64,000 nucleotides of DNA from Escherichia coli (GTDB lineage: Bacteria > Pseudomonadota > Gammaproteobacteria > Enterobacterales > Enterobacteriaceae). The stretch lies in the NCBI RefSeq assembly GCF_003018235.1, contig NZ_CP027437.1; one strand, 5' to 3'. Every line of letters begins with the position of its first letter. The stretch's first letter is position 1. The position numbers were made by a program, and so were the translations under genes. This document shows, in pieces, positions 47,213 to 47,503 of the stretch. Below the pieces are notes generated by a model that ran no database searches, had not been told where the DNA came from, and was given only the letters and a program-made list of their open reading frames with translations.

Positions 47213-47503
47213 TTTGCCAACACCGTTTTAAGCATATTTAAAAAGCCAAAATCATTCCTATGAATGATTTTGGCTTTTTTATTCATCCCATAAATGTTAT
47301 TTACGGTAATTTACGGTAATTAATCAGTTTCAAAAATGTTTGTTATAGCGAATTATTTGTTGTATTTATATCGCATTAGTTAATTTGTTTTAAGTCAACA
47401 AAACAATATGTTTACATTGCGGCAACCTTTTTGATGTGAGAAATTTGTTTCCAAGAGATACAGACTCTTAACAAAACAAAATAAACTTATTAAGGAATGC
47501 ATC

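Follow-up and report, generated by a model that had tools for sequence, protein, structure and literature searches.

The yehE-yehD intergenic region of Escherichia coli: a probable composite of ordinary control elements with a variable 10-bp tandem duplication

The region that separates yehE from yehD in the DNA studied here (a 64-kb stretch of Escherichia coli DNA, analysed as a whole and hereafter referred to as the window) is an ordinary fimbrial control region, most of which has already been described. We estimate at about 70% the probability that it is a composite of four ordinary parts, i.e., a terminator, an A/T-rich spacer, a conserved block and a short 5'UTR. The regulators of the yeh region (H-NS, SlyA, ArcA, CsrA and ethanolamine) are already in the literature. 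A preliminary description of the window had drawn attention to the terminator, the A/T-rich tract and a tandem direct repeat upstream of yehD, but overlooked conserved elements of the region, namely the ArcA~P operator at 47386-47428 and the CsrA-bound Shine-Dalgarno region.

The yeh locus of the window

The genes yehE and yehD are on the same strand, and the spacer between them spans 291 bp (47213-47503). They are preceded by apbC (plus strand) and metG (minus strand), located 5' of yehE, and followed by yehC, yehB and yehA, located 3' of yehD; at homologous loci, RefSeq gives the order apbC, yehE, yehD, yehC, yehB, yehA. All YehE homologs contain the Pfam domain PF10836. The features of the region are as follows:

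46931-47212, plus strand: yehE, the upstream gene, encoding a small secreted protein of 93 aa (DUF2574/YehE) (ORF list, RefSeq annotation of homologous loci)
47240-47285, plus strand: predicted intrinsic terminator of yehE, with an 18-bp stem, a 4-nt loop and a U-run (inverted-repeat search, RNA folding, covariation)
47299-47321, no strand assigned: tandem duplication, 2.3 copies of ATTTACGGTA (TRF, chance control, population searches, variant alignment)
47300-47314, minus strand: candidate CpxR box GTAAATTACCGTAAA, created by the repeat, with a 10/10 match to GTAAA-N5-GTAAA
47352-47503, plus strand: conserved promoter-proximal block, 88% identical to K-12 versus 67% for the distal spacer (K-12 and cross-genus alignments)
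47386-47428, minus strand: predicted ArcA~P operator, ortholog of a K-12 ChIP-seq site, with direct repeats at 11-bp spacing (K-12 identity, PWM)
47411-47419, plus strand: candidate promoter hexamers in the invariant TTTACATTGC, with TTTACA as -35 or TACATT as -10 (read from the sequence)
47490-47500, plus strand: yehD Shine-Dalgarno region and CsrA-binding GGA of the 5'UTR, with the GG at 47494-47495 (sequence, orthologs, published EMSA)
47504-48046, plus strand: yehD, the first gene of yehDCBA, encoding the 180-aa major fimbrial subunit (ORF list, RefSeq annotation of homologous loci)

The composition of the spacer bears out the A/T-rich tract that had been noted upstream of yehD: its A+T content is 72.5%, versus approximately 45-50% in the flanking housekeeping genes, and the GC minimum, calculated per 200 nt, is 26.5-27%, versus approximately 50-55% in metG and apbC. 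The spacer contains no plausible small ORF, and a leader peptide was rejected as a reading of the region.

None of the complete E. coli genomes matches the window exactly, the best match being 99.7%. A 1-nt deletion at about position 48477, relative to both O157-like and K-12 sequences, splits yehC into ORFs at 48086-48505 and 48514-48807. Judged by this best match and by the frameshifted yehC, the window strain is not O157 itself. Because the chaperone gene yehC is frameshifted, Yeh fimbriae are probably not assembled in the window strain.

A conserved hairpin follows yehE

The hairpin and T-run terminator that had been proposed after yehE is readily recognized. Its stem starts 28 nt past the yehE stop codon and consists of two arms of 18 nt each (47240-47257 and 47262-47279) that are 100% complementary and are separated by a 4-nt loop; a T-run (TTTTTTATT / UUUUUUAUU) follows immediately. 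The corresponding RNA hairpin has a minimum free energy of -22.4 kcal/mol (z = -5.7), and none of 200 shuffled sequences was equally stable. We compared 12 orthologous spacers, which included those of E. coli alleles, E. albertii, E. whittamii, two other Escherichia species, three Citrobacter and Salmonella arizonae. In this set, the 18 stem pairs are formed in 92.6% of the cells of the alignment, as compared to 40-54% after the 3' partner has been shifted by 1-3 columns, both-sided changes occur at 5 of the stem pairs, and the observed covariation score was not matched by any of 500 shuffles. The structure is conserved and has the appearance of a functional one, and it is predicted to terminate transcription. 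It was not listed by a generic terminator scan, likely because pairing with the upstream A-run takes up five of the T's, so that the required 8-nt tail window contains only four. It should be noted that the yeh genes are written as the 'yehEDCBA operon' in one preprint (bioRxiv 10.1101/2024.06.20.599902).

Two additional observations concern this part of the spacer. The top of the stem (ATCATT...AATGAT, window 47250-47270) is nearly invariant in sequence from Escherichia to Salmonella and it is the base of the stem that covaries, a pattern not usually seen in a plain terminator. Immediately before the terminator (47232-47239 region), non-O157 carriers of the window-type allele have a 7-bp tandem duplication (TTAAGCA TTAAGCA) that the window and the O157 strains do not have. 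It represents another slippage polymorphism of this spacer, 60 bp upstream of the 10-bp repeat.

The promoter-proximal block is conserved across genera

The identity to K-12 of the promoter-proximal block exceeds that of either flanking gene (76-80% for yehE and yehD). For a 111-bp piece of the K-12 version, 5271 of 5328 E. coli records, whatever their yeh allele, show an identity of 95% or more. In Citrobacter and S. arizonae, in which YehD is only 32-37% identical, the core TCAAyAAAACAAyNNGTTTACATTGCrGyAAC is nearly unchanged. Paralogous copies of the block were not found elsewhere in E. coli chromosomes, the median being one place per genome; beyond the chromosomal locus, the block occurs only upstream of yehD-like operons carried by plasmids, and 14 plasmid records match it. 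An example is plasmid pMB7206_1 (NZ_CP103610.1, 2780-3140), a P1-like phage-plasmid with darA and holin genes, which carries an IS1-flanked yehD-like chaperone-usher operon whose YehD is 38% identical and whose upstream core block (TTTAAATCAcAAAgACAAcNNGTTTACATTGCG) is located at the same 93-nt spacing to the ATG.

The yehD operon is among those reported to be directly repressed by ArcA (Park et al. 2013, PMC3798270). In K-12, the ArcA ChIP-seq peak at yehD was seen in only one of two replicates, with an enrichment of 3.9-fold; yehDCBA was up 5.4-fold in an arcA mutant and is listed with 'no TSS' (PMC3798270). The site given in Table S4 of that study, AAGTTGCCGCAATGTAAACACATTGTTTTATTGATTTAAAACA, consists of four direct repeats 11 bp apart that score 1.4, 7.5, 6.1 and 3.7 bits (PMC3798270). 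K-12 has an exact copy of its reverse complement 77-119 nt before the yehD ATG; in the window, 39 of its 43 positions are identical (4 mismatches) at 47386-47428, 76-118 nt upstream of the ATG. With a direct-repeat PWM that we rebuilt from 237 published elements, the K-12 repeats score 1.7, 7.7, 6.6 and 4.9 bits, which reproduces the published values. When both strands of the window (about 128,000 positions) were scored with it, the operator (8.9, 5.1 and 1.9 bits) ranked first for both the two-repeat and the three-repeat sums. The operator has at least two TGTTA-like 10-bp elements with a centre-to-centre distance of 11 bp, and the direct-repeat scores are maintained in 9 of the 12 orthologs. 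The identity of YehD is only 32-38% in Citrobacter, Salmonella and the P1-like plasmid copy. By analogy with its K-12 homolog, the window allele would be bound and repressed by ArcA. The window has a private A-to-G change at 47394, present in none of the compared genomes, which lowers the score of the outermost (fourth) ArcA repeat from 4.9 to 1.9 bits.

The sequence TTTACATTGC is invariant in all 12 orthologs. A scan of the spacer for the sigma-70 consensus yielded no sites with at least 9 of 12 matches, and the candidates identified manually are all weak: TTTACA (-35), TACATT (-10) and TGTGAGAAA (extended -10). A weak yehD promoter may be located inside or next to TTTACATTGC, and the operator probably overlaps this promoter.

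The only GGA in the last 60 nt before yehD is that of the Shine-Dalgarno sequence AAGGAA (47493-47498), and TTAAGGAA is nearly invariant across the orthologs. In enterohaemorrhagic E. coli (EHEC) strain 86-24, CsrA binds to the yehD 5'UTR in EMSA, binding is abolished by a GG to CC change, and CsrA promotes YehD expression (PMC11287998). Several readings based on RNA structure were considered and rejected. RNAalifold, applied to the promoter-proximal block and 5'UTR of the 12 orthologs, gave a weak consensus fold (-1.4 kcal/mol) without covariation support, and Rfam covariance models gave only two chance-level matches (E ~0.3) in the interval 45000-49000, which argues against a structured 5'UTR RNA or an Rfam family. 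A possible pairing of UCUUAA with UUAAGG that would mask the Shine-Dalgarno sequence was discarded as well: both sides are invariant, and the pairing is broken without compensation in the single divergent sequence.

H-NS and other regulators of the locus

The yehD/yehE spacer of K-12 belongs to a set of 78 'promoter islands' that are bound by H-NS in the Kahramanoglou and Oshima data sets (PMC3661553). The yehDCBA genes have been flagged as H-NS-bound, as 3.6-fold up upon overexpression of SlyA, and as H-NS-repressed according to Korea et al. (PMC5797941), and yehEDCBA lies inside a static extended protein-occupancy domain (bioRxiv 10.1101/2024.06.20.599902). It has also been published that overexpression of BolA raises yehD and yehC. 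[quoted passage not shown] Silencing by a nucleoid protein, which the preliminary description had suggested, is thus published, with H-NS, for the K-12 homolog; homology and base composition suggest that it extends to the window allele.

Motif searches did not pinpoint individual sites for these proteins. The high-affinity H-NS motif TCGATAAATT has no match with up to 2 mismatches in 47215-47503, is not enriched and is absent from the repeat; the sole nearby match overlaps the yehE stop codon. Matches in the window to the SlyA consensus TTAGCAAGCTAA are fewer than expected by chance, and none in the spacer is convincing. Two types of fimbrial switches were rejected. A fimS-type invertible switch had as its candidate an inverted repeat (47380-47391 / 47473-47484, 92% complementary) that is of low complexity and not conserved in K-12, and the annotation of the yeh locus contains no recombinase gene; for a pap-type Dam/Lrp methylation switch, 47213-47503 contains no GATC sites.

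The 10-bp repeat is a genuine but labile duplication

The tandem direct repeat reported upstream of yehD is real: TRF detects a period of 10, 2.3 copies and 100% matches, with the unit ATTTACGGTA. No other perfect period-10 repeat in the 64-kb window reaches 23 nt, and 100 first-order Markov simulations produced none; therefore, it is a true duplication rather than a chance similarity.

We surveyed its copy number by comparing the native two-copy query and synthetic three-copy and one-copy queries with E. coli genomes. Among the ~370 carriers of the window-type allele, about 360 (~97%) have exactly two copies of ATTTACGGTA, eight have three and one has one, so that the range is 1-3. The three-copy genomes are seven of O157 type and that of strain 17MR471, and the one-copy genome is that of ATCC 43889. 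In one pig isolate the first copy has a point mutation. Outside this allele, E. whittamii has a single copy of the unit, E. albertii has ATTTACAACA ATTTACGGTA at the repeat position, and K-12 has the degenerate pair ATTTACATAA/ATCTACATTA; nothing recognizable as the repeat was seen in alignments of the other E. coli alleles or of the Citrobacter and Salmonella orthologs. The repeat position is the fastest-evolving and least conserved part of the spacer, the distal part of which is 67% identical to K-12, versus 88% for the proximal block.

These properties do not favour the idea that the repeat is a control element, given that its copy number varies, that it is not conserved outside the window-type allele, and that it lies in the least conserved part of the spacer. 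Nothing in our results points to a factor that would read its sequence or copy number. The repeat behaves like a neutral, labile micro-duplication generated by replication slippage, its poor conservation suggesting functional neutrality. A finding that runs counter to neutrality is that two TTTAC pentamers 10 bp apart are kept in E. albertii, with a different spacer, and at 9 of 10 positions in K-12. The retention of the pentamers in these two would also fit a lineage-restricted binding site.

Could the repeat itself be a specific determinant of H-NS silencing, its phased A/T tracts providing curvature or a nucleation site? In favour of this, helically phased AATTT tracts recur in the sequence at 10-bp intervals, the A+T content of the region is 73%, and the K-12 homolog is bound by H-NS. 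However, K-12 is bound without having the perfect repeat, no match to TCGATAAATT with up to 2 mismatches is present within the repeat, the rest of the spacer is equally A/T-rich, and variants with one and three copies occur in otherwise identical O157 backgrounds. We therefore consider such a role unlikely.

A second possibility is that the repeat constitutes a functional CpxR~P box that couples expression of Yeh fimbriae to envelope stress, the number of copies (1-3 pentamers in 10-bp phase) tuning or abolishing the input. Read on the minus strand, the repeat is GTAAA-TTACC-GTAAA, which agrees with the GTAAA-N5-GTAAA consensus given for CpxR in PMC6534853 and PMC7083825, including the canonical 5-nt spacer, and this perfect match is the only one in the 64-kb window. 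Both pentamers are perfect in Escherichia sp. E1V33 and in E. albertii, the latter with another spacer (GTAAA-TTGTT-GTAAA), and K-12 retains 9 of 10 positions (GTAGA-N5-GTAAA). On the other hand, 0.15 exact matches are expected in the window and at least one was found in 14 of 100 shuffled windows, odds that the local A+T bias raises further; by our estimate, GTAAA or TTTAC would occur in roughly 5% of duplicated 10-bp units of like composition. In 8 other orthologs the box is either degenerate, as in other E. coli alleles, or absent, as in Citrobacter and Salmonella; E. whittamii and ATCC 43889 have just one pentamer. Moreover, it is located approximately 190-204 nt upstream of the yehD ATG, and a literature search gave no link between yehD and the Cpx regulon. 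Compared with described CpxR~P boxes, GTAAA(N)4-8GTAAA, the repeat is alike in its 10/10 match and canonical 5-nt spacer, but this candidate box is poorly conserved, varies in copy number and is far upstream of the gene. This makes a functional box, in our view, distinctly improbable. The same low odds apply to the corresponding proposal that the duplication in the O157-type allele would have created a CpxR~P box, so that isolates with 1-3 copies would receive differing envelope-stress input to their Yeh fimbriae.

A slipped-strand phase-variation switch (contingency locus) for Yeh fimbriae, to which the copy-number differences among isolates might point, was rejected as very improbable, considering that ~97% of the carriers have exactly two copies within a range of merely 1-3, and that the tract is wrongly placed, being outside the coding region and the -35/-10 spacer and separated by 65 bp or more from the conserved operator and candidate promoter downstream of it. 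The repeat was also rejected as an ArcA site: it has a single strong element, ATGTTATTTA (47294-47303, 10.1 bits), with no partner 11 bp away.

The yeh genes are a divergent allele

In apbC and the spacer that separates it from yehE, the window and K-12 are 97-98% identical. The identity then drops to 76% in yehE, 67% in the distal spacer, 80% in yehD, 84% in yehC, 88% in yehB and 48% in yehA, and returns to ~98% past yehA. The divergent segment (~46950-52300) has sharp boundaries, located at the start of yehE and the end of yehA. The window-type allele is present in ~370 of 5426 complete E. coli genomes, mostly O157:H7 plus some pig, chicken and human isolates, and the O55:H7 strain DEC5D has a K-12-type allele. 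The window-type allele shares 99-100% identity with its counterpart in Escherichia sp. E1V33, in which the neighbouring metG and apbC match those of the window at only 91-92%, and 94-97% identity with that of E. whittamii. This suggests that E. coli (O157:H7 and others) and a cryptic Escherichia lineage have exchanged yehEDCBA alleles. The fimbrial operon had been referred to as horizontally acquired, which holds in one sense: it is the whole of yehEDCBA that is a divergent allele, 99-100% identical to that of a cryptic-clade Escherichia with flanks of ~91-92%.

Some further mosaicism was observed. The spacer of the O157:H7 strain TR01 is recombinant, being of the window type through the terminator and of the K-12 type in all that follows, yehD included, starting ~10 bp ahead of the repeat; recombination breakpoints thus fall inside the yehE-yehD intergenic region. 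In the apbC-yehE spacer, the interval 46750-46900 of the window is K-12-like (97%) and only 83% identical to an O157-like genome, so that the mosaic boundaries of the window differ from those of O157:H7. Upstream of metG, the interval 40900-43300 is divergent from both K-12 and the O157-like genome.

Discussion

The closest known system is the orthologous K-12 yehE/yehD promoter island, which has the same genes (Panyukov & Ozoline 2013, PMC3661553; Park et al. 2013, PMC3798270). It shares with the window the terminator, the ArcA direct-repeat block (39/43), the Shine-Dalgarno sequence and the spacing between operator and ATG (77-119 versus 76-118 nt). It differs in that the window allele is only ~80% identical over yehE-yehD and has a perfect 10-bp duplication where the K-12 pair is degenerate. 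The yehD 5'UTR studied in EHEC O157:H7 (Gonyar et al. 2024, PMC11287998) belongs to the same allele, O157:H7 genomes including the 86-24 derivative being 99-100% identical over the 101-bp repeat region, and the GGA/Shine-Dalgarno sequence of the window is identical to that of the O157-like locus; in contrast to the present analysis, the terminator, the repeat and the ArcA site are undescribed in that study (PMC11287998). The region also resembles the H-NS-silenced chaperone-usher promoters (sfmA, yadN, elfA and the fimB/E region), which likewise have an A/T-rich spacer upstream of a poorly expressed fimbrial operon and are listed together with yeh as promoter islands and SlyA-responsive operons. 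Unlike this group, yeh is without invertible-element features, GATC sites or a locus-encoded regulator (PMC11287998 discussion).

Taken together with the published data, the region may work as follows. The yehE transcript would be ended by the Rho-independent terminator hairpin, and the A/T-rich spacer and the yeh genes, as published for K-12, would be coated by H-NS, which SlyA and possibly other factors may counteract. Replication slippage would have duplicated the 10-bp unit, copies of which are apparently still gained and lost (1 to 3), and the repeat would contribute 10-bp-phased A/T-rich DNA to the region that H-NS coats in K-12. At low oxygen, phosphorylated ArcA would bind the minus-strand direct repeats 11 bp apart and block RNA polymerase at the weak promoter, and CsrA bound at the GGA/Shine-Dalgarno sequence of the short 5'UTR would promote production of YehD. 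The effects of H-NS, SlyA and ArcA are those known for K-12 and, by homology, would hold for the window allele.

The significance of the region beyond annotation is little, and the tandem repeat, a labile micro-duplication, is not to be taken for a control element. Nevertheless, the CpxR box spelled by the repeat provides a cheap, testable hypothesis for strain differences in Yeh expression in O157:H7. If true, strains would differ in whether, and how strongly, envelope stress drives Yeh expression, which in EHEC affects expression of the LEE and of Shiga toxin. Of the non-coding elements of the locus, none is better conserved than the K-12 ArcA site, in a comparison that extends from Escherichia to Citrobacter and Salmonella arizonae. 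Such conservation strengthens the ChIP peak that was seen in just one replicate, and argues for oxygen/redox control as an ancestral, selected property of Yeh/Stc-type fimbriae.
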